NCBI GenBank assembly: GCA_944371305.1
Contig: CALVXM010000001.1
Span: 39,600 to 103,599, forward strand
Direction of reading: 5' to 3'
DNA from: an uncultured Bacilli bacterium
GTDB taxonomy: Bacteria > Bacillota_I > Bacilli_A > RF39 > UBA660
DNA: 64,000 bases
Notes under the pieces: model-generated
What the model was told of the DNA's origin: nothing
Databases searched by the model: none
What the model saw: the letters and a program-made list of their open reading frames with translations, nothing else
In this document: piece by piece, positions 4,725-60,675 of the stretch
Layout of the letters: each line of letters opens with the position of its first letter
How positions within the stretch are numbered: the stretch's first letter is position 1
Position numbers and translations under genes: made by a program

Positions 4725-5564
4725 ATGGGAAACGATATATATCAAAATGCCATGTGTAAAATTGAACAAGATCAAAAATGTAAACCTTCTTGTGTAACTT
4801 GCGTCGGAGCAACCGGACCTACTGGGCCGACCGGACCTGCTGGTCCAACTACAGTAGCAGTTGGACTTACAACTACTGGTATACCGGGTTCTAACGCTAC
4901 TGTTACCAATGCAGGAACCAATACTAATGCTATTTTCGATTTTGTTATTCCTGCCGGTGCGACCGGTGCAACCGGGCCGACTGGACCTACTGGACCACAA
5001 GGTATTCAAGGTATTCAGGGTATTCAAGGAATAGCGGGAGCAACTGGAACCCCTGGAGCGACTGGAGCGACTGGACCTACTGGGCCTGCCGGAGCATCTG
5101 GTGCAACTGGAGCGACTGGACCTACTGGACCAACTGGACCTAGTATTACACCAACATTTACAATAGGGACTGTTTCAACTGGAGCCCCTGGTTCTACAGC
5201 TACCGCTTCTATAACTGGTACATCTCCTAATTTCTTCTTAAATTTAACTATACCTGCTGGAGCGACTGGACCTACTGGAGTATCTGGCGCTACTGGACCT
5301 ACTGGACCTGCTGGAGCATCTGGCGCTACTGGACCTACCGGGCCTGCTGGAGCATCTGGCGCTACTGGGCCTACCGGACCTGCTGGAGCATCTGGTGCTA
5401 CTGGACCTACTGGACCTGCTGGAGCATCTGGTGCTACTGGACCAACTGGACCTGCTGGAGCATCTGGTGCTACTGGACCTACCGGACCTGCTGGAGCATC
5501 TGGTGCTACTGGACCTACCGGACCTACTGGACCAACTGGACCAACTGGACCTACCGGACCATAA
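4725..5564 (+). CDS. Collagen-like triple-helix repeat protein (Gly-X-Thr repeats); no signal peptide and no C-terminal globular domain
   Basis: Long runs of [16 protein letters not shown]; short non-collagen N-terminus with Cys cluster [10 protein letters not shown]; ends in GPTGPTGP then stop and an intrinsic terminator. Confidence 0.75.
5275..5526 (+). repeat. Tandem 36-bp repeat (about 7 near-identical units, ggagcatctggYgctactggRccWacYggRcctgct) encoding [12 protein letters not shown]
   Basis: Direct reading of sequence; units differ only at synonymous third positions; explains spurious antisense ORFs 4686-5027 and 5244-5579. Confidence 0.85.
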
Positions 5565-7869: not shown

Positions 7870-8575
7870 TTATGAAAGAATCGCCCTTGAACTATAATAG
7901 ATAGAATTACTACCGTTGTTATAGAAAAAAGCAAATATTCCACCGCCAGGTCCATTAGCATAATGACTGCTACGAAGAACCCAAGAAGTATTAGAATTTA
8001 AAGAATATGAATGCTCTTCATACCAACCACCAATTATAGTTCCTAAAATTGTTAAAGTTTCTTTAGTCGCATCACCTAATTTACCTCTTGAATGCGTTAA
8101 ATTATTAGTTGCATCATATGTATAACTATCATAATACTTAGTTACTAAAACTTGCACCTGAAGAAAGGAAATTACCATTGGCATTAACCATACTACCCAT
8201 TCCATATTCTTAATCACGTGATAATCGCCATTAATTTTATAATTATTAGCAATATTTTTTATCTAATTTCTCGCTGGTTTAACAAGGATTTAAAACTACA
8301 CCTTAATCTTGATGATAAATGACATTATGCAAGTAATTCTATTTCCAAAAGTTTCAATATTAGCTAAAAATACTTCGTTGATAACTGGTATTTGTCCTTC
8401 AATTTGCTCATTATAATAAGTTTCTCTAATCGCTTTAGCATATCCCTCAATACTTCTTTTATTCGCACTATCGCGTGACTGTTCAATTACATTTAATTAG
8501 TATCGCAATTAAAGCAATAATAGCTAATATGATCATAACTGCTAATAATTCGACTAACGTAAACCTTCTAACCTC
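7870..8575 (-). pseudogene. Degraded prepilin-type N-terminal domain gene (pilin-like family member A): no start codon, Gly(-1) replaced by Arg, at least two frameshifts
   Basis: RC of 8500-8575 reads RRFTLVELLAVMIILAIIALIAIL then stop; the next frame continues EQSRDSANKRSIEGYAKAIRETYYNEQIEG...; ORF 7870-8217 carries the C-terminal part (..SWVLRSSHYANGPGGGIFAFFY) resembling the C-termini of the other paralogues. Confidence 0.6.
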
Positions 8576-10530
8576 TAACTATCTATCCTTTTACCATCCC
8601 TAATCACATATTCCTCTTTAGTCTTAGCATCAAATACATAAGTTGCCTGATTAAATTCAATATTATCAAAATCTTTTAAAATTTTAATATTATTAACTTT
8701 ATTAAAAACTTTATCTAATTTCTCTTCGATTTGTTCTTTCGTAAATGGTTTAGCAATATAATCGATAAAACCTTGTTCAATATATTTTTCTTTTGCTCCA
8801 GAAATAGCGTCAGCCGTTAAAGCTATTACTGGGGTATTAAAGTCTGGTATCTCTTTTAATTTTGCCATTGCTGTTACTCCACTCATATTTGGCATCATAA
8901 TATCCATTAAAATTAAATCATATTGTTGACCACTATTAATTTTATTTAAACATTCAATACCATCATAACATTCATCAATTTCAAATCCAAAACCAGCTAT
9001 AGCCAGTTTAGCTACTTTGATATTTAATTTATTATCGTCGACAATTAATACTTTTTTATGACCATAATTTTTAATAACATTGTTTTTAACAATTATATTT
9101 TCATCCAATGGTTCTTCTAGCTTACTTATTTTTTGAGGTATTTGAACAATAAATAACGATCCTTGTCCAAATTGACTTTGAACATTTATCTTTCCATTCA
9201 TCATTTCAACTAATGATTTAGTAATAGCTAGACCTAAACCGGTTCCTTCAGTAGTAGTATTTCTTTCTACATCCAATCTTTCAAATTTGTTAAATAATTT
9301 ATTTATTAATTCTGCTTTAATTCCTCTTCCTGTATCTTGAACACTAATTATTAAATTGCATAAATCATTTTTATTAATACATCTTACATTTAAATTAATA
9401 CTTCCTTGTTCAGTATATTTGATAGCATTAGACAATAAATTATTGATTATTTGTTTAATATGAATCTTATCACCAATTAATTCATATGGTACATCAGGAG
9501 CAATACTTATTTTAAATTCGATTGGTTTAGTCCCAATTCTTGTTAATGTTACCTTACATAAATTAGTTATTTCTTTTCTAAAATTATAAGGACTATTTTC
9601 TATTTCTATTTTCTCGGCCTCAATTTTATTGATATCTAATATGTTACCTACTATTTCAAGTAATGTTTGACTAGCATTCTGAATATCGATTGAGTCTTCG
9701 ATTACTTCTTTAGGAACACGATCTTTATAATTAGTTATATCAAAAGAAAGTCCGACGATTGCATTTAAAGGGGTTCTGATTTCATGCGACATACTAGATA
9801 AAAAATCTGATTTAGCTCGATTCGCTTTTTCTGCTTGATTTTTAGCTAAAGTCATTTGAGCTAACATCTTTACGTCCGGATTTTCAATTGTAAAATACAT
9901 TGTTACACATATCAAAGTTTCAACATAAGTCATAAGTAAAATTTGTGGATATTTCATCTGAATAGCCATCGCAATGCCTCCGATAGCTAAAAATATAAAT
10001 ACTGGAATATATTTTCTATTTTTTAATTTTTTTATATTAGTTAACAATAAAATTATTATAATAGCTATTAAAACACCTGATATAAAATACGTAAATAAAA
10101 CACTAACGCCAGCTGTATATCGTATGTTAAAATCATCTTTAATAATTATATCTATTGGTAAAACAAATAAAATCAAAGCCATAATAACATAGTAAATAAA
10201 AAATATAATATATCTTTTCTTATCTACTATTAATTCATTTCTTATCACACTAAATATATAATACGCGAATGTCGAAATCCACAAGATTAAATAAAGCAAA
10301 TAAGATTTATAAATTAGTTCACTAATCAAAGGATAATCTTTATAAATGTATGAAGCATAAGTACACAACATCTCGATAATCAATCCAAATAAATTTGAAA
10401 TTATTAAAACTTTAAATATTTTGGTTTCCTTACTATCTACATGTCCTTTAACAAAAAATAAAATTATAATTAAAATACTAAAAGGTATTGCACATAGAGG
10501 AAAATATATTCCACTTCCCATAATCTTCAC
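8575..10530 (-). CDS. Hybrid sensor histidine kinase (polytopic membrane sensor, HisKA, HATPase_c, C-terminal receiver domain)
   Basis: About 6 N-terminal TM helices; H-box [15 protein letters not shown]; G-boxes DTGRGI / GTGLGLAI; receiver LIVDDNKLN...ILMDIMMP. Confidence 0.85.
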
Positions 10531-10599: not shown

Positions 10600-12354
10600 C
10601 TAAATTTTCAATACTTTTTGTTTAGCTTCTAGTTTTTCTAAAGCATCTTGTTCTAAGAAAGAATAATCAATTTTATCAGTTCCCGCTTTTCTAGGAAGTT
10701 CTGAAATAAACTCGATATAACTTGGAATTTCATATGATTTTAACTGTTCTTTTGTATTATTAGCTGTTAAAACTGGTTTTAAAAATTGTTCTTTAATACT
10801 ATCCATTACTTCCATCGAAGGTTCAACACCATCTTTTAAAACAATATATGCTTTATTTTTATATAACATTTCCTCATCAGGGACCTTAACAACCGCACAA
10901 TCACTGACATTATCCATATAAGAAATTAGATTTTGAATGCGATCACAATAAACTTTATTTAAGCTGGACATAATATAAAATCTTGATTCTCTACCAGTCA
11001 AAGTAAAATAACCATCTTCATCAATAGAACCTAAAGTACCTGTTTTGAAAAAGATTTTACCACCCCTTTCAAATTTAACTTCAGAAGTAGCTTTTTGATT
11101 TTTAAAATATTCTTTAAAAACATGTTTTCCTGAGACACATAACAATCCTACTTCATTATATTTTTTCTCTTCCATTGTCTCTGGATCAACTATAATAGCA
11201 TCAGTTCCAACCAATACTTTACCGGCAGTTTCTGGTCTAATTTCAATTCCCGTTGGATTGGTTCCACAACTAACTGTCTCCGCATTACCAGAACCATTAC
11301 CCATTTCAACATTTCTAGCGCCATGACTTTCTAAAAATTCTTTTCCTCTTTTAGAATGATTAGGAGTTAAAAAATCCCCACCTGATATAAAAGTTGTTAT
11401 CGATGATAAATCTTGGCTATCTTCGATATTTCTCATGATTAATTCTAATAAAGCTGGGCTTCCAAAAATAATATTCGGATTTTTCTTCAAGTAATAACTG
11501 ATTGTATCTTTAGATATATCAGGAGCTAGGATCGCTGTTTTACTACTTAATAAAGTCATTATTGTCGAAGTTACAAAACCATAAGGATAAGAAAATGGAA
11601 CACATACTAAAGTTTTATCACCATTTAAAGATTTAACATGACTAGAATTTTTTAAATAAGTACCCGCTGCTAAAACATTTTCATTAGTCAAAACAACCGA
11701 TTTGGGTTTACCAGTTGTTCCACTCGTAAACAAAATTAAACAATTATCTTTAGAATTATTATTAGGTAATCCTTTTTTTTGATATTTTGATATACTTTCC
11801 AAACTACTAAAATCAATAAAGGAATCATTATGAGTGATGTGATAATCTTTATCCATCAATAAATTATTTACTTTTGATTTATCTAGGGTAATTATATATC
11901 TTACACAGCTATTATTTTTAATTTCTTCATTTTCTAAATCGGTTTTATCAAAATTTATAAAAACTGAAGATTCAAAAGTATTAAGATAATCACATATTTC
12001 ATCTTTTGAAGCATTAGCATTTAAAAATGTCACAACTGCGCCGATTCGATTACAAGCTAAAAAAGTAGCTACTGCTTGATAATAATTAGGCATACAAACT
12101 GATACAATTTCACCTTTTTTTACGCCCAGTTCTTTCAAAGCTTTAGATATGATAACAGAATCATTAATTAATTGTTCATAAGATGCATTTAAATCAATGC
12201 AGTCAATGGCATCCTTCTTTTTATAAAAAGTATTTATTAATTGAATCGAATTATAAACACTCATATTAGGAATCACCGGATGTCGTGCAGAAAAAGAATA
12301 TCCATTATTTTGCGGTTTATCAATACTAGGATATCCAGTTAATTCTTTTTTCAT
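10600..12354 (-). CDS. AMP-dependent synthetase/ligase (adenylate-forming, ANL superfamily); start taken at MKKELTGY after a GGAGGGG Shine-Dalgarno
   Basis: AMP-binding motif LFTSGTTGKPKSV; about 585 aa; co-directional with mraY and murE. Confidence 0.8.
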   Translation of the reverse strand: MKKELTGYPSIDKPQNNGYSFSARHPVIPNMSVYNSIQLINTFYKKKDAIDCIDLNASYEQLINDSVIISKALKELGVKKGEIVSVCMPNYYQAVATFLACNRIGAVVTFLNANASKDEICDYLNTFESSVFINFDKTDLENEEIKNNSCVRYIITLDKSKVNNLLMDKDYHITHNDSFIDFSSLESISKYQKKGLPNNNSKDNCLILFTSGTTGKPKSVVLTNENVLAAGTYLKNSSHVKSLNGDKTLVCVPFSYPYGFVTSTIMTLLSSKTAILAPDISKDTISYYLKKNPNIIFGSPALLELIMRNIEDSQDLSSITTFISGGDFLTPNHSKRGKEFLESHGARNVEMGNGSGNAETVSCGTNPTGIEIRPETAGKVLVGTDAIIVDPETMEEKKYNEVGLLCVSGKHVFKEYFKNQKATSEVKFERGGKIFFKTGTLGSIDEDGYFTLTGRESRFYIMSSLNKVYCDRIQNLISYMDNVSDCAVVKVPDEEMLYKNKAYIVLKDGVEPSMEVMDSIKEQFLKPVLTANNTKEQLKSYEIPSYIEFISELPRKAGTDKIDYSFLEQDALEKLEAKQKVLKI

Positions 12355-12443
12355 TAAATACCCCTCCATCGGAATGTATGCTACCATAAATAAAAAAAAT
12401 TGTCAAATTATTTAAACAAAAAATTACTAACCAAAGTTAGTAA

Positions 12444-21783: not shown

Positions 21784-22020
21784 ATCATTTCACCAAGTTT
21801 ATTATATAACAAATAAAAAAAGATTACAATAAAATAGTTTGCTATAACTAATTTAAATATAAAAAAAGATAAATTTTAACTTTATCTTTTTAAGTAAATA
21901 AAATTAATTCTCACCAAAAATATCATCAATAACATTTTCTGGAATATGATAAAATTTTTGATCGAAAATAATATATGGGTGACTTCCCCCAATACTATCT
22001 GTAGGGTCTACCGGTTCTAT

Positions 22021-22410
22021 TCATTCTCCATTAACTTTAAAATTTCCATCACTTTGTAATTCAAATTCATAGTTATTACTCTTTATTTTTAATTTGGTTA
22101 CTTTACCATTTTGATATTTGACTTCTAAGACTTCCGCATTCCCTAAACTCACCATTTTGCTAACATCATCAATGGTTACTCCATCATCATCATTACATAT
22201 ATCTGTACTTTCATCTAATTGATTCTTCATTGCTGATGTCGCACAATAATTATTAATGCCACTTAATATCATACTTGCTTCTGATTTTCCCGCACTCTTT
22301 CTAGCATCTTCAATCACATTTAATATGATTGGGGTTGCTATTAGGGCTATTATAGCTAATATTATTATGACTGCTAATAATTCAATCAATGTAAATCCGC
22401 ATTTCTTCAT
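22021..22410 (-). CDS. Prepilin-type N-terminal cleavage/methylation domain protein (pilin-like family member B, the only intact copy); start at ATG 22410 after a GGAGG Shine-Dalgarno (ORF track extends to a GTG at 22425)
   Basis: MKKCGFTLIELLAVIIILAIIALIATPIIL: class III signal peptide with G(-1) F(+1) E(+5); about 129 aa. Confidence 0.8.
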   Translation of the reverse strand: MKKCGFTLIELLAVIIILAIIALIATPIILNVIEDARKSAGKSEASMILSGINNYCATSAMKNQLDESTDICNDDDGVTIDDVSKMVSLGNAEVLEVKYQNGKVTKLKIKSNNYEFELQSDGNFKVNGE

Positions 22411-28476: not shown

Positions 28477-29403
28477 ATGAATATAATAGATAAAAATTTC
28501 AACGAATTGGTTAATAAAATTAAAAACATGTCGCAAGATGACATTTATGTCAATATTCAAAATAAATTTCATCACTTACCACAAGACATTAAGGATTCAT
28601 TAGAACAATACTTTAATTTATTTAATTATTGGGGAAAACTAAATGTCTCTTCAAATAACTACCAAGAATTGTTTGAAAAATCACAAGTATTATTCGAACA
28701 TATCGATGATTTTATTTGGTTATATAATAGACTGGAAGATTATTCTTCTAAAAAAATATTATTTGGAATTTTAAATAATTGGTACCAATATGATTTTATA
28801 ACTTTAAAAGAATGTATGAATAATCCTTTTAAACATTATTTTGATCTAGATATTATTCCTAATTGCGATAATGAAGTTTTTGTCGATTTAGGTGCTTATA
28901 CTGGTGATACAACTTTTGATTATATTAATACTTATCAAAATTATAAAAGAATCTATTGTTATGAAATAACTAAAGAAACCCTTTCGATTTTAAAAGACGT
29001 TCTAAGTAATTATAAAAATATTGTTTATAAAAATAAAGCTGTTTCCGATCAAAATAATATCTTATATTTAAGCGAAAGTTCTGTTAATGCATCAGCTAAC
29101 CAAGCATTAGAAATCGGTACCATTGAAATAGAAAGTGTTAGTCTAGATAACGATATCTTAGAAAAAATCGATATGATTAAAATGGATATAGAAGGATCTG
29201 AATATAAAGCATTAAAAGGTGCTAAAAATCATATTATTCACGATAAACCAAAGTTGTTAATTTCAGTTTATCACAATAATGATGACTTGTGGCAAATTCC
29301 TAAATTAATTGATGAGTATAACCAAAATTATAAATTTTATTTAAGATATTATGGTAATAATATCTATCCAACTGAAATAGTGTTACTTTGTGTACCACAA
29401 TAA
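28477..29403 (+). CDS. FkbM-family SAM-dependent methyltransferase
   Basis: VDLGAYTGDTTFDY SAM-binding segment and IKMDIEGSEYKALKG FkbM signature. Confidence 0.7.
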   Translation: MNIIDKNFNELVNKIKNMSQDDIYVNIQNKFHHLPQDIKDSLEQYFNLFNYWGKLNVSSNNYQELFEKSQVLFEHIDDFIWLYNRLEDYSSKKILFGILNNWYQYDFITLKECMNNPFKHYFDLDIIPNCDNEVFVDLGAYTGDTTFDYINTYQNYKRIYCYEITKETLSILKDVLSNYKNIVYKNKAVSDQNNILYLSESSVNASANQALEIGTIEIESVSLDNDILEKIDMIKMDIEGSEYKALKGAKNHIIHDKPKLLISVYHNNDDLWQIPKLIDEYNQNYKFYLRYYGNNIYPTEIVLLCVPQ

Positions 29404-29404
29404 T

Positions 29405-29437
29405 AAAAAAATTCAAGAAAAACTTGAATTTTTTTAA
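29405..29437. terminator. Bidirectional intrinsic terminator (FkbM gene / pilin-like gene C)
   Basis: A-run, hairpin attcaagaaaaacttgaat, T7. Confidence 0.7.
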
Positions 29438-30507
29438 TTAACCTATTCTAAAAGCCGGAGCAACACCATTAATATCAATAGCATGAGGATCATTCCAATT
29501 GCCATCAAGCATAATACGGTAAAAAGCAGTATTAAGGTGAGCAAAAGCAGAACGTGTCCACCAATAACTTTCAAGTTCTTGATGTCTTTTTATTGCTCCT
29601 TTATAATTACTAGTGCTTACATTATTCATTTCATAATAATCTAATTGTCTTGTATTGTTATCGCTCGTATCATTACTTATAATATTACTTGTTCCATTTT
29701 TACCATAGATTTCTTTCGTAGCTAACAAATATAATTTGTCGTTAGTTATAAAATTTTCTAAATCTCCACTACCATGACTAGATATTACTTTTGTATCTAT
29801 TATTACATTTTTTAAATCTTCCGGTAACGAATTATATATATCATTTTTTAAAAATATATATAGTTCACTTGCAGGATATCCCCCTATATTAGTTAAAGTT
29901 GAATTTATTTTACGTAATGTGATTATATCAACAAATTCAATCACAAATCCACAAGCAGTTTGCGAAAATTCATTATTACTACATTCAGATGGCGTTGTAA
30001 TATTGGCTATTCTTACCGTATATGTACCAGCATATTCTCCAGTTAAAGTTACTTCTTTTGTATCTCCTACTTTATATTTACTCATATCCCCATTTTTTAC
30101 GGCATTAGCTATTGTTTTCCATGAATCATCTTTAAATGATACTGGAGTATGATTTTTACATTCTTCATCATAGCGAAATACATATTGATTATTAATTTCA
30201 TCCCATTTATATAATACACAACCTGTCATTTCTTTATTAGTCACTGGATTTATCGTCTCAATTTCTAAAAAGCCACTACTTTTTAATTCATTTAAAAATA
30301 TCGCATTTTCTTCGGTTGAATATCCTAAACTATTTTGAGTACTATAATTATGAGCTGCTTCTAAAATACTATCAATACTTCTTTCTAATGCTGCTTGCTT
30401 ACTATTTTCGATTGATTTATCGACTATTGGAAAAGTTATTAAAGCTATTATTCCAAGTATTATTATGACTGCTAATAATTCAACTAATGTAAATCCTTTT
30501 TTAACAT
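29438..30507 (-). pseudogene. Prepilin-type N-terminal domain protein (pilin-like family member C, about 355 aa if corrected) interrupted by a 1-nt frameshift in an A6 run at codon 4
   Basis: ATG 30507 gives MLKKDLH-stop; shifting one base after the A6 run (plus-strand T6 at 30497-30502) gives ..KKGFTLVELLAVIIILGIIALITFPIVDKSIENSK... continuous with ORF 29438-30244; perfect promoter TTGCTT-N17-TATAAT upstream. Confidence 0.6.
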
Positions 30508-30532
30508 TCTAATTCACCCACTCTTTAAATTC

Positions 30533-30561
30533 ATTATATACGAACTTATATTCAAAAGCAA
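30533..30561 (-). promoter_or_regulatory. Sigma-70-type promoter TTGCTT-N17-TATAAT for pilin-like gene C
   Basis: Read on minus strand about 25 nt upstream of ATG 30507. Confidence 0.45.
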
Positions 30562-30567
30562 GTTTCA

Positions 30568-30600
30568 TATAACAAAAAAGGTCATTTTTTCAATGACCAA
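30568..30600 (-). terminator. Intrinsic terminator at the end of the arc operon (after the YfcC-type carrier gene)
   Basis: Minus-strand hairpin ggtcattgaaaaaatgacc followed by T6. Confidence 0.7.
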
Positions 30601-46925: not shown

Positions 46926-50034
<3,109 letters not shown>

Positions 50035-50602: not shown

Positions 50603-50677
50603 TGGAGCAAGTGAGCGGAATCGAACCGCCGTCCCAGCCTTGGCAAGGCCGTATACTAACCGCTGTACTACACCTGC
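50603..50677 (-). tRNA. tRNA-Gly (anticodon GCC), CCA encoded
   Basis: RC folds as cloverleaf: acceptor gcaggtg/cacttgc, anticodon stem cggcc/ggctg, loop ttGCCaa, T-loop ttcgatt, 3' tCCA; 75 nt. Confidence 0.9.
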
Positions 50678-56689: not shown

Positions 56690-56739
56690 ATCATCACCTC
56701 AATTATATAACATATTATAACATATTTTAGAATAAAAAA

Positions 56740-56915
56740 AAAGTCCAAGAATGCGGGCCCTTAACGATAAAACCTAGTCTCTACCAGGTGGGCATCACAT
56801 CATCAATTTTAGGATTCTCAAAATTAATTGAGCCTTCAACACCATCGATGAATTAGATTCCCAATATTCGTTAATCAGTCGGTTTTTCTAAATGAGCTTA
56901 TCGCTATCCTTAGAC
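56740..56915 (-). ncRNA. Candidate small/structured RNA or tkt 5' leader (about 175 nt, GC-rich island, extended -10 TGgTATAAT at 56922-56930, 3' T9)
   Basis: Local GC far above flanks (gggcccgc, cccacctgg); no ORF; family not identified; no clean terminator hairpin found. Confidence 0.2.
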
Positions 56916-57943: not shown

Positions 57944-58927
57944 TTAAAAGGAATATGCACGGACGTCGGTGGTATTCGTCGGGTTGTTGTAGAAGTTGCC
58001 ATAGCCATAGACGCGACGAACGTAAGACGAACTATATCTATTTCCTAACCAAAAATAATCTTTTATATCTAAATATGAATTAGTTCCACCTGCTCTTACA
58101 TATTGATTTTCATCTAATAATCCTACTTTTTTAGTTACTGTTATTTCATCGACATCTGTATATATTCCTACATTAAATGTATTGTCTTTTATATTATTTT
58201 GAATGCTACCATCTAAACTATTATAAAAATATTCATTTAACCAATTATTGATATAACTTGCTTCATATTCTTCTTCTGTTTCCCATACATCATAAGCTGG
58301 ACTAATTGCTGTCAATGGTTGTTGAGATACCAATAATAATGTATTCTCTTCTGTATCAATTTCTACTATTCGCCAATGATGACCCCCATACCATAAATAA
58401 TTATTAGTAACTTCGTCATTTGTACCTTTATAATAATATATATTACTATTTGTTTCATCTTGCACTAATCCTTTGGTTCCAACTTGTTCTAATAATGTTG
58501 ATATTAAATTTGTCTCTGGGTCCTCTGGTAGCTTGACACCACATTCTTCTTCATCAATGGAAAAACTTCCATCACCACATAATGTAAATTTATGAGTATT
58601 ACTATTGACTACTAAATTTGTTACTTTACCATTACTGTATTCTACTTCTAATACTTCGGCATTTCCTAAACTTACCATCTTACTTACTTCTTCAGTTGTT
58701 ACTCCATCGGCACATATATCTTCTGTTCCATTTAATTGATTTTTTACTTTACTAGTAGCACAGTAATTATTAATGCCACTTAATATCATACTTGCTTCTG
58801 ATTTGCCCGCACTCTTTCTTGCATCATCAATGACATTTAAGATAATTGGTGTGGCTATCAAAGCTATTATAGCTAATATTATAATAACTGCTAATAATTC
58901 TATTAACGTAAATCATTTTTTCTTCAT
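57944..58927 (-). pseudogene. Prepilin-type N-terminal domain protein (pilin-like family member D, about 327 aa; N-terminal 120 aa about 85% identical to member B plus a roughly 170 aa C-terminal extension) carrying an in-frame TGA at codon 5, exactly the Gly(-1) position
   Basis: ATG 58927 after a GAGGAG Shine-Dalgarno: ATG AAG AAA AAA TGA TTT ACG TTA ATA GAA TTA TTA = MKKK-stop-FTLIELLAVIIILAIIALIATPIIL...; paralogue B has TGC GGA at the same place. Confidence 0.6.
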
Positions 58928-59092: not shown

Positions 59093-59161
59093 CTATAAAG
59101 GTTTTTGCCCCCCCCCATGTGTGCTATTTGCTAATTTGGCTGTTACCTTATTTTCTATCAT
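59093..59161 (-). CDS. Candidate leader peptide ORF (22 codons, MIENKVTAKLANSTHGGGQKPL) containing a G9 (plus-strand C9, 59108-59116) homopolymer
   Basis: Paralogous to 22519-22590; the G9 tract encodes GGG within the ORF. Confidence 0.35.
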   Translation of the reverse strand: MIENKVTAKLANSTHGGGQKPL

Positions 59162-59307: not shown

Positions 59308-60675
59308 CTATGATATTTTAAAAGAATTATCCAAACTATCTTTAGGAAATCTAACTACTTCATCAGTCAAATGATTAATTCTAAAGATTTCATTATCAAC
59401 GATATTATCACCATAAGTACCAATATAAAAACTATTCACACCAGCAATATAATTAGCATCACCATAAGTTCCATGTTGCCAATTCTTTAAATAATTAATT
59501 GTTGCTTTAAAATTACTATATTTATTTTCATCTAAAGCTTTAGCAAAACCGATTGGATCATTATGAACCATTTTAACGTACTTAATCCAACCAATATCAT
59601 TATAATCAACTACAACATCATCAAATGTTCTGCCAGTCTCATCAGCATAAATAGCTACTATTAGATCCATCAATCCTTGACCATAATTGTAAGATTGTAA
59701 AGCCATTTTCTCATTACCATGATATTTCTCTAAAACTTTTTGATAACGCATAATTCCCATTTTTATATTAGTTTTTTTATCGATAGCATTATCTAGTGTT
59801 TCATAAATCGTTTCTTCTTCGCTTGTTGTATAATTAAATGCGGTAATTTTTTGCCCATTAGGCGATTCTAATTGACAAATTCCTACGCCAAAACCATTAT
59901 AGTTACTACCGCCAGGAATCGTTGTCTCATGACTTAAACTGGACTCCTTCATAATTAAACAAAGAAATATATATGGATCTATTCCAAAATCATTAGCAGT
60001 TTTTAAAAAGTAATTGCCATCATCAGAATTCAAAAAATTCTTTATTTTATTAATTGTATAATTATCAATTTTAGTACTAATTGGAATTGTAGAACTATTA
60101 GCAACCTCATTGTTAATCACTTTCAAAGTTTGTTCTAAACGATTATTTAAAGTATTATCTAAAGCTTCATAAACAGGTTTTTCTAAATCATCTTCTATAA
60201 CATTATTATAAGAAAGAGCAAATTCTTGTTCAATTTTAGGAATTTCATTTTCGATAATATTTTCCTGAACAACAGTTTGAGTAGTGTTTATATCACTTTT
60301 GTCTAAAACTTGTTTAGCAAGATGAATTGAACCAATCAAGGTAACCGTAGTAAGCGCTAAAGCAGCAATCCGCTTTTTATTATAATTTACCTTCTTAACA
60401 ATAGGAGTTGCCTCATCGATTCCATCTAGTATGGCATGATATAATCTTGAATCAATATGCTTTTTGTACGATTTTAAAGTAAGGGAATTACTACGGTTAT
60501 AAATAATCTTAATATCATTTGCCCGCATCTCAACTAATCTAGGATTGTTAGGTAAACTCTCTATCAAAGCTCGCATTTTAGAAGTACTGTTACTTCTTCT
60601 CACTCTTTTTTGAGGAGTTCTTTCAATAATTGTCTGTTTATATTTACCATTAGAATAATCGATAATTATTTCCAT
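59308..60675 (-). CDS. Bitopic membrane protein with C-terminal SLT-like (lytic transglycosylase / lysozyme-like) domain
   Basis: TM segment IAALALTTVTLIGSIHLA around residue 105; SLT-like motifs MKESS (catalytic E-S), GVGICQL (GLMQ-like), SYNYGQG (AYNAG-like). Confidence 0.45.
   Translation of the reverse strand: MEIIIDYSNGKYKQTIIERTPQKRVRRSNSTSKMRALIESLPNNPRLVEMRANDIKIIYNRSNSLTLKSYKKHIDSRLYHAILDGIDEATPIVKKVNYNKKRIAALALTTVTLIGSIHLAKQVLDKSDINTTQTVVQENIIENEIPKIEQEFALSYNNVIEDDLEKPVYEALDNTLNNRLEQTLKVINNEVANSSTIPISTKIDNYTINKIKNFLNSDDGNYFLKTANDFGIDPYIFLCLIMKESSLSHETTIPGGSNYNGFGVGICQLESPNGQKITAFNYTTSEEETIYETLDNAIDKKTNIKMGIMRYQKVLEKYHGNEKMALQSYNYGQGLMDLIVAIYADETGRTFDDVVVDYNDIGWIKYVKMVHNDPIGFAKALDENKYSNFKATINYLKNWQHGTYGDANYIAGVNSFYIGTYGDNIVDNEIFRINHLTDEVVRFPKDSLDNSFKIS

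Follow-up and report, generated by a model that had tools for sequence, protein, structure and literature searches.

The window analyzed here, a 64-kb stretch of DNA from an uncultured Bacilli bacterium, carries on its minus strand a pilin-like gene, designated gene C, whose allele is best explained as a naturally segregating off allele. With a probability of roughly 0.65, it represents a natural null or strong hypomorph, a locked-off young pseudogene at the mutation-prone 5′ end of a surface-adhesin gene. Three states of this 5′ end occur among gut metagenome contigs; one, with the leader MLKKNHTDITKK and a run of nine A residues (A9), would be ON, and the other two, with a run of eight (A8) or with a 25-nt deletion, would both be OFF. 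In the window allele, a slipped-strand deletion between TAAAAAA repeats would have placed the start codon in a short frame reading MLKKDLH and then stop, and the prepilin frame, left with no start codon, would give rise to little or no prepilin from gene C. Two types of mutation at a single hot spot, one in a homopolymer and one at a direct-repeat pair, would thus inactivate the gene, and its loss may be tolerated or favored. Gene C would be a lectin-tipped pilin of an uncultured, very AT-rich member of the human-gut Bacillota that is often OFF in nature, as would be expected of a surface structure on which immunity, phage, or niche exerts fluctuating selection. The biological weight of the finding is small, as this is a real but ordinary kind of gene inactivation.

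Reading frames and domain architecture of gene C

Reading along the minus strand, ...AAAGAGTGGGTGAATTAGA is followed by ATG TTA AAA AAG GAT TTA CAT TAG. The frame actually initiated (30484 to 30507, minus strand) has seven codons, MLKKDLH, running from ATG at 30507 to 30505 to the stop codon TAG at 30486 to 30484, and rereading of the strand gave the same result as the earlier note had reported for this start codon. The A run within this frame is exactly six bases long (A6; 30502 to 30497, minus strand). One base out of register with the ATG lies an open pilin frame of 356 codons plus TAA (29438 to 30508, minus strand), which begins just past a TAG at 30511 to 30509, opens with NVKKGFTLVELL... 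(also given as NVKKGFTLVELLAVIIILGIIALITFPIVDK...), and ends at TAA 29440 to 29438. Its class III signal and alpha1N segment start at GGA 30496, and the pilin module extends to approximately 30146. No ATG, GTG, or TTG was identified in the pilin frame before GTG 30244 (codon 89), which lies downstream of the signal; because this is the first start codon in the frame, the list of open reading frames gives a product of only 268 amino acids. Reinitiation past TAG 30484 was considered as a source of pilin and rejected, as the first in-frame start is at codon 89 and any product made from it would be signal-less.

Insertion of one A, to which a −1 slip is equivalent, restored the class III signal as had been claimed and generated a 356-amino-acid protein with matches to PF07963 (N_methyl; E value, 1.2e-5), TIGR02532 (E value, 3.6e-7), and PF19789 (DUF6273; E value, 3.7e-14). 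Gene C is a real disrupted gene and not a chance open reading frame, and its domain architecture is clear from these matches. A start codon in the same frame as the prepilin signal is absent from the window allele and present in the A9 allele.

The prepilin signal, KK/GFTLVELLAVIIILGIIALITFP, consists of a hydrophilic leader ending in Gly, a hydrophobic alpha1N, and Glu at position +5, and a class III signal is also present in the intact allele, P0001. An AlphaFold2 model of the intact allele, built from a 61-sequence alignment (pLDDT, 89.4; pTM, 0.70), has a long N-terminal helix (residues 16 to 67) followed by a small sheet and a compact alpha/beta module, an arrangement that agrees with a pilin fold. 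The N-terminal part was likened to the pseudopilins GspI and EpsI and to the pilin PilJ. The C-terminal DUF6273 module (29441 to 30145, minus strand) is predicted with high confidence to adopt a C-type-lectin-like fold and is presumed to be the ligand-binding graft of a modular pilin. Gene C has a PilB-like modular-pilin architecture, and by analogy the pilin module probably presents the ligand-binding module at the filament tip. Pfam scans identified no pilus machinery (prepilin peptidase or assembly ATPase/platform) within the 64-kb window.

Sequence varies greatly between homologues in the segment that precedes the conserved GVAPAFRIG end. In a BLASTN comparison of the gene with the 64-kb window, no second copy of its 3′ part that could represent the template repeat of a diversity-generating retroelement (DGR) was found, and no reverse transcriptase was identified in the window. 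The closest named protein relative (55%) is from "Candidatus Faecisoma merdavium," and a 47% relative (L015) carries a TasA-like signal.

A Shine-Dalgarno (SD) sequence, GGGTGA (30514 to 30519, minus strand), is separated by 6 nt from the ATG downstream and by 11 nt from an A AAA AAG heptamer; it was judged good, and the ribosome-binding site is intact, as previously reported. The DcuC-type transporter gene upstream is followed by an intrinsic terminator comprising GGTCATTGAAAAAATGACC and a T run (30580 to 30598, minus strand), the sequence of which is identical in all alleles; two terminator-like sites were found against 0.3 expected from shuffled sequences. Since this terminator (30598 to 30580) closes the upstream gene, the pilin gene forms its own transcription unit and must have its own promoter. 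The putative promoter (30533 to 30561, minus strand), which is also identical across all alleles, consists of a −35 sequence, TTGCTT (30561 to 30556), a 17-nt spacer, and a −10 sequence, TATAAT (30538 to 30533). The description of this site as a consensus promoter applies to the −10 but not to the −35, which matches at only three of six positions; the site was not listed by the promoter scan, and promoter-like sites in this region of 26% GC were no more frequent than in shuffled sequences (13 versus 11.6).

Gene C is monocistronic and lies between the dcuC-like gene and a convergent FkbM-type methyltransferase gene (28477 to 29403, plus strand). Between the two convergent genes, an AT-rich hairpin, AATTCAAG-TTTTT-CTTGAATT (29410 to 29430), has an A run on one side and a T run on the other and fell below the G+C threshold of the terminator scan. 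Judged by its sequence, this hairpin is likely to be a bidirectional terminator between the pilin and methyltransferase genes.

The 5′ lesion and its alleles

A search with the repaired protein identified a sister allele, P0001 (364 amino acids; 99% identical), with the N terminus MLKKNHTDITKKGFTLVE. The contigs that carry it share the synteny of the window, with genes for OTCase, carbamate kinase, and the DcuC-type transporter on one flank and for the FkbM-type methyltransferase, a Wzx/MurJ-like flippase, and RelA on the other. This in-frame allele reads ATGTTAAAAAAAAATCATACTGATATTACTAAAAAAGG, has a 12-residue leader, MLKKNHTDITKK, ahead of /GFTLVE, and holds the A9 run. DNA alignment revealed that the window is without 25 nt relative to the long allele, namely TAAAAAAAAATCATACTGATATTAC. 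The single-base loss in an A7/A6 tract that the earlier note had proposed was therefore not the lesion; as 25 is 24 plus 1, the 25-nt loss mimics a one-base frameshift. A homopolymer "one-base frameshift" called from a single sequence can be a larger deletion, which only sister alleles show.

In the long allele, two 7-nt direct repeats lie 25 nt apart in the arrangement TAAAAAA-AAATCATACTGATATTAC-TAAAAAA. Alignments and a string census showed that a single TAAAAAA copy, which includes the A6 run, is retained in the window at the deletion junction (30497 to 30503, minus strand). The keeping of one repeat copy is what slipped-strand deletion between short direct repeats classically leaves behind, and the sequence points to the 25 nt having been lost through such a slipped-strand (microhomology) event. 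We infer that its direction was deletion and not insertion. Under the opposite polarity, the ancestral form would be the short out-of-frame one, and a frame-restoring 25-nt insertion would have produced the A9 leader. In line with this, deletion-class alleles outnumber A9 alleles and show greater diversity, and most family members have short MKKG leaders. However, the 25 nt do not duplicate neighboring sequence, and the presence of two TAAAAAA copies in the long allele and exactly one in the short allele is a deletion signature. The long leader is also joined to a different C-terminal cassette in one locus (L017), and an ancestral gene with no usable start codon is implausible, and the reversed polarity is considered highly improbable.

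Alleles of approximately 99% identity were obtained from gut metagenome contigs; DNA was taken for representatives of each gene-call type, and their 5′ ends were scored. One locus (L016) was a duplicate of another (L008), and a metagenome pattern scan added two loci, one of them a duplicate. The in-frame A9 form was found at five loci (L001 to L004 and L017), and the out-of-frame long A8 form at one, L011, the sole A8 contig verified at the DNA level. The 25-nt deletion, also out of frame, was found at 10 loci (the window, L005 to L010, and L012 to L014). The samples were drawn from nine or more ENA studies, and within the same study series both states are present.

These observations bear on the suggestion of a homopolymer sequencing or assembly error that hides an intact A7 gene, for which only the general error-proneness of homopolymers can be cited. 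The window allele is 25 nt, not 1 nt, shorter than the intact allele, and at least 10 contigs, assembled independently in different studies and with different assemblers, have the identical junction. The three alleles are real, the window allele is free of assembly error at this junction, and the suggestion is effectively excluded.

In the 90% protein cluster, the in-frame 364-amino-acid form is present on nine contigs and out-of-frame calls on approximately 24, comprising 268-amino-acid (∼15 contigs), 263-amino-acid, 288-amino-acid, and 131-amino-acid calls and two 376-amino-acid calls. The last two (P0125 and P0127; ...WVNQNVKKGFTLVE) raised the possibility of a suppressor mutation converting TAG 30511 to CAG, which was rejected, as the DNA still reads TAG; the Q in both proteins comes from the gene caller's code, which read TAG as Gln on the deletion allele. 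The 268-, 263-, and 288-amino-acid calls and the 376-amino-acid calls with TAG as Gln are frameshift artefacts, and many database entries are affected. Homologues of 288 to 291 amino acids with no N_methyl match were considered as further truncations and rejected, as they have a different N terminus (MRKLKRKKNY...) with a hydrophobic anchor and are intact.

The earlier note had also offered a reversible on/off switch. For the window allele, this would be A6-to-A7 phase variation by slipped-strand mispairing, with the ON form carrying the leader MLKK. Tracts in the signal-peptide-coding region are well known to cause phase variation of pilus-associated genes, and the poly-G tract of Neisseria pilC provides a precedent; here, one added A would restore a canonical prepilin, and the homopolymer at the same 5′ end of the sister allele does slip (A9 versus A8). 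The locus therefore resembles a contingency gene, in that its 5′ coding tract occurs as both an in-frame (A9) and an out-of-frame (A8) length variant. The window allele differs in that it carries A6 after the deletion and has been seen in one state only: all 10 of the deletion loci were A6, and the 90% protein cluster held no A7 (356-amino-acid) form, in a census of consensus assemblies, which do not reveal minority variants. Given this lack of A7, the check put forward in the earlier note, for reads supporting A7, makes the wrong comparison. In addition, A6 is short for an efficient switch and is unremarkable in the window, where 190 A/T runs of exactly six were counted. The window allele cannot revert by simple slippage except through A6 to A7, a form absent among the alleles examined. 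A reversible switch thus suits the A9/A8 polymorphism of the sister allele and fits the 25-nt deletion allele less well, and for the latter it is very unlikely. Early-stage pseudogene was the best of the three options in the earlier note, with an initiated frame that stops and no start in the pilin frame.

The A8 haplotype is otherwise the same as the A9 haplotype of L002 to L004, consistent with the A9 tract having slipped recently. Across the window, A/T runs of at least nine are strongly depleted (1 observed versus 10.9 expected), and runs of six to eight are over-represented; for this genome, the ON allele's A9 tract is therefore exceptional.

Variation and possible output of the deletion allele

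Across 15 loci, six single-nucleotide polymorphisms (SNPs) were identified in gene C, all in deletion-class lineages. The nonsynonymous changes were V77A, A142T, F227Y, and F361L, and the synonymous changes were at I41 and N334; flanking genes had 3 nonsynonymous to 6 to 8 synonymous changes. The resulting pN/pS-like ratio of approximately 0.5 in gene C, against approximately 0.13 in the flanks, is compatible with relaxed constraint, although the difference is not significant (Fisher P = 0.16 to 0.31). All four combinations of the indel with flanking site 4239 were found, so that the four-gamete test fails and the deletion is present on several haplotypes. It follows that recombination has carried the deletion onto different backgrounds or that the deletion has occurred more than once.

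Several features count against reading the window allele as a null. The 356 downstream codons are fully open in every allele examined, and the deletion allele is in the majority and occurs on several haplotypes, which could mean that it is not simply deleterious junk. Furthermore, the deletion creates the order SD-AUG-UUA-AAA-AAG, a layout that frameshifts by −1 in vitro. Expression could therefore be leaky or tuned, with ribosomes that initiate at ATG 30507 slipping by −1 on A AAA AAG at codons 3 and 4 to give MLKKGFTLVE..., and with the initiation SD 11 nt upstream acting as a stimulator. Prepilin with a canonical short leader would then be produced at some fraction of its usual rate, which could suffice for a minor tip pilin.

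The heptamer (30496 to 30502, minus strand) has the slippery form X XXY YYZ and lies in the exact zero-frame phase (UUA AAA AAG G), with AAA AAG in the initiated frame; after a −1 slip, reading continues GGA TTT ACA..., and the product is the repaired protein. The SD, GGUGA, which is the gene's own initiation SD, ends 11 nt 5′ of the heptamer, within the range of approximately 10 to 14 nt taken as stimulatory. A dnaX-derived mRNA used in vitro, in which one SD is followed by AUG, one codon, and AAA AAG (MVKK), relies on that single SD for both initiation and frameshifting (PMC5389563). In the E. coli in vitro system, −1 shifting on this construct reached 84% when the hairpin was present, 20% when it was absent, and 2% when the slippery site was missing (PMC5389563). 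The layout of gene C is the same as that of the construct shifting at 20% with no hairpin (PMC5389563), although these efficiencies are from the E. coli in vitro system and not from the host of gene C. Leaders of the MKKG type are the commonest in the family, and the deletion allele is frequent with its open reading frame intact, which also speak for frameshifting.

However, no downstream stimulatory structure was found in gene C: the minimum free energy was −13.5 kcal/mol against a mean of −15.6 kcal/mol for shuffled sequences (z = +0.73), and no stable local hairpin was predicted. The two-frame arrangement is a by-product of a within-species deletion and lacks conservation; relatives and sister alleles are in one frame. 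In ordinary genes, an in-frame A AAA AAG occurs five times in the approximately 19,000 codons of the window against 7.7 expected, indicating that the heptamer is tolerated, and no sign of purifying selection was seen among the deletion alleles. On balance, −1 frameshifting as the source of prepilin is regarded as unlikely. It is more doubtful still that the deletion has made a low-output allele that is expressed solely by SD-stimulated −1 slippage at codons 3 and 4 and is kept at high frequency. If this were true, the tip adhesin would have three heritable expression levels (full with A9, low with the deletion, and off with A8), and gene C would provide a natural frameshift site created de novo by a deletion, with frameshift-dependent expression arising by accident.

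Other pilin-like loci and comparison with known systems

One of the A9 loci, L017, belongs to the same species, its DcuC protein being identical, and matches the promoter, SD, and long A9 leader at 100% identity. Identity drops to approximately 83% about 85 nt past the SD, inside the alpha1-coding segment, and homology ends fully after the pilin module (..YDEECK); the downstream gene differs as well. Its C-terminal module is a different domain, weakly FGE-sulfatase-like with an E value of 3e-4, which is below Pfam's threshold. These differences indicate that whole cassettes are exchanged at the locus, with the breakpoint in the conserved N-terminal coding segment.

Three further pilin-like genes were identified in the window. 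A heavily decayed remnant (∼8590 to 7870) has a 3′ fragment resembling the L017-type module, a small pilin gene (22410 to 22021) is intact, and a DUF6273-bearing pilin gene (from 58925) has TGA as its Gly(−1) codon and reads MKKK-stop-FTLIELL. In the window strain, three of the four pilin-like genes (the remnant, the gene at 58925, and gene C) are therefore damaged, which favors ordinary inactivation and turnover over a sophisticated mechanism. The TGA in the gene at 58925 suggested a code in which TGA encodes Gly (code 25). This was rejected, as TGA closes 8 of 49 long open reading frames, among them those of relA, the OTC gene, and an ABC ATPase gene, and long genes show no interruption when translated with table 11. 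Beside the same pilin gene is an SLT gene; all four contigs from other samples end approximately 127 nt past it.

With regard to the lesion, deletions between short direct repeats arise by replication slippage, and the deletion hot spots of lacI are the classical case. The window allele resembles these with no notable difference, one 7-nt repeat copy and the intervening DNA having been lost. Gene C shares with dnaX-type −1 frameshifting an identical heptamer in the correct phase and an upstream SD, at 11 nt in gene C and at 10 nt in dnaX. Unlike dnaX, it has no downstream hairpin, is not conserved, and appears to be born of a recent deletion. Like Neisseria pilC, gene C is a pilus-associated surface gene whose first codons contain a homopolymer, and A9 and A8 both occur naturally, whereas the window allele is a 25-nt deletion and not a tract-length variant. 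Simple-sequence-repeat contingency genes in general have been reviewed elsewhere (PMC5084427, PMC3315296).

At the protein level, the nearest parallels are the modular type IV pilins of Streptococcus sanguinis, PilB with a vWA module and PilC with a lectin module (PMC8179133, PMC9934059). The likeness lies in the class III signal, the small pilin module, the bulky C-terminal module that is not pilus-specific, and the monoderm host; gene C differs in that its module is DUF6273, in that it is out of frame, and in that no pilus machinery lies beside it in the 64-kb window. DUF6273 is a C-type-lectin-like receptor-binding domain in gut phages, where it is often DGR-diversified (PMC10743442; bioRxiv 10.1101/2024.10.15.618418). 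Gene C shares the domain family and fold with these DGR targets, but its domain is fused to a pilin and not part of a phage tail protein. Gene C thus joins two known kinds, the modular pilins and the frameshift-inactivated surface genes.

A second interrupted pilin gene and its leader

Gene C, the bimodular type IV pilin gene with a DUF6273 module at 29438-30507 (-), is joined in the window by a second DUF6273-bearing pilin-like gene at 57944-58925 (-), which carries a stop codon within its class III prepilin signal. The 5′ end of this gene reads ATG AAG AAA AAA TGA TTT ACG..., translated MKKK, stop, FTLIELLAVIIIL..., with 322 codons open beyond the TGA, which is a genuine stop codon in this genome. 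The TGA occupies exactly the position of the Gly(−1) codon, and a paralogue has AAA TGC GGA TTT at the corresponding site; judged against this paralogue, a G-to-T change or the loss of 3 nt would explain the stop.

A conserved leader of ∼70 nt containing a mini-ORF lies upstream of this gene (about 59160-59095) and also upstream of the pilin gene that starts at 22410 (22590-22520). The mini-ORFs encode MIENKVTAKLANSTHGGGQKPL and MLENKVKTLLANSTRRMKKISTK, respectively, each closed by a stop codon, and the mini-ORF leader is similar to the long leaders found in some members of the pilin family (MIEKRIKFKLVNSMRMKKG). The 59.1-kb copy includes a homopolymer at 59108-59116, C9 on the forward and G9 on the reverse strand, which is extraordinary in a genome of 26% GC. 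This G9 leader may be a phase-variable tract or the remnant of an older 5′ end. Contigs carrying the SLT-domain gene (59308-60675) in other samples (L018 to L021) all stop ∼127 nt downstream of that gene (4/4), just short of the region matching the mini-ORF/G9 leader and the 58925 pilin gene, a pattern suggestive of repeated or variable sequence at which assemblies break.

The pilin gene at 22021-22410 (-) is small and intact, encoding 129 aa (MKKCGFTLIELL...) and terminating at TGA. Past this stop, 39 more in-frame sense codons (IEPVDPTD...; 21904-22020) show a loose parallel to the linker of the 58-kb paralogue, and the small pilin may therefore be a truncated modular pilin.

Homopolymers, frame variants, and other elements

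The homopolymer spectrum over the whole window is unusual. A/T runs of 6, 7, and 8 were over-represented (190, 93, and 26 observed versus 131, 49, and 18 expected, respectively), and runs of ≥9 were nearly absent (1 observed versus 10.9 expected), the sole A9 being intergenic (56734-56742). The population that holds the gene C alleles has further length or frame polymorphisms. A 1-nt indel splits the DcuC-type gene in one sample, L013 (position 2215 in the coordinates of L001, a contig with the A9 in-frame allele), and the AMP-binding enzyme gene at 10600-12387 (-) has variants of 584, 589, and 595 aa inside a 90% cluster.

Elsewhere in the window, genes for a Mob_Pre relaxase and a large serine recombinase (46926-50031, -) adjoin a tRNA-Gly gene (50603-50677, -), and together they resemble a small mobilisable element in integrated form. 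A gene encoding a collagen-triple-helix-repeat protein (4725-5564, +; PF01391; E value, 1.6e−24) lies in otherwise housekeeping surroundings.

Pilin modules at the gene C site

In a different strain of the same species, the counterpart of the gene C site (L017:905-2500, -) carries a pilin gene with an identical promoter and A9 leader, the long in-frame 5′ end of sister alleles. Identity with the window breaks within the α1-coding segment, about 85 nt past the SD; the pilin module is diverged (about 83% nucleotide identity), the 400-aa C-terminal module is unrelated to that in the window, and the downstream gene also differs. The identical promoter and leader, followed by the break in the α1-coding segment and an unrelated C-terminal module, suggest that cassettes are swapped at this site via the conserved N-terminal coding sequence. 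The window also contains a decayed pilin pseudogene at about 7870-8590 (-), which reads ..RRFTLVELLAVMIILAIIALIAI.. and then breaks frame several times; the fragment at its 3′ end (ORF 7870-8217) is similar to the C terminus of the alternative, FGE-sulfatase-like pilin module of L017.
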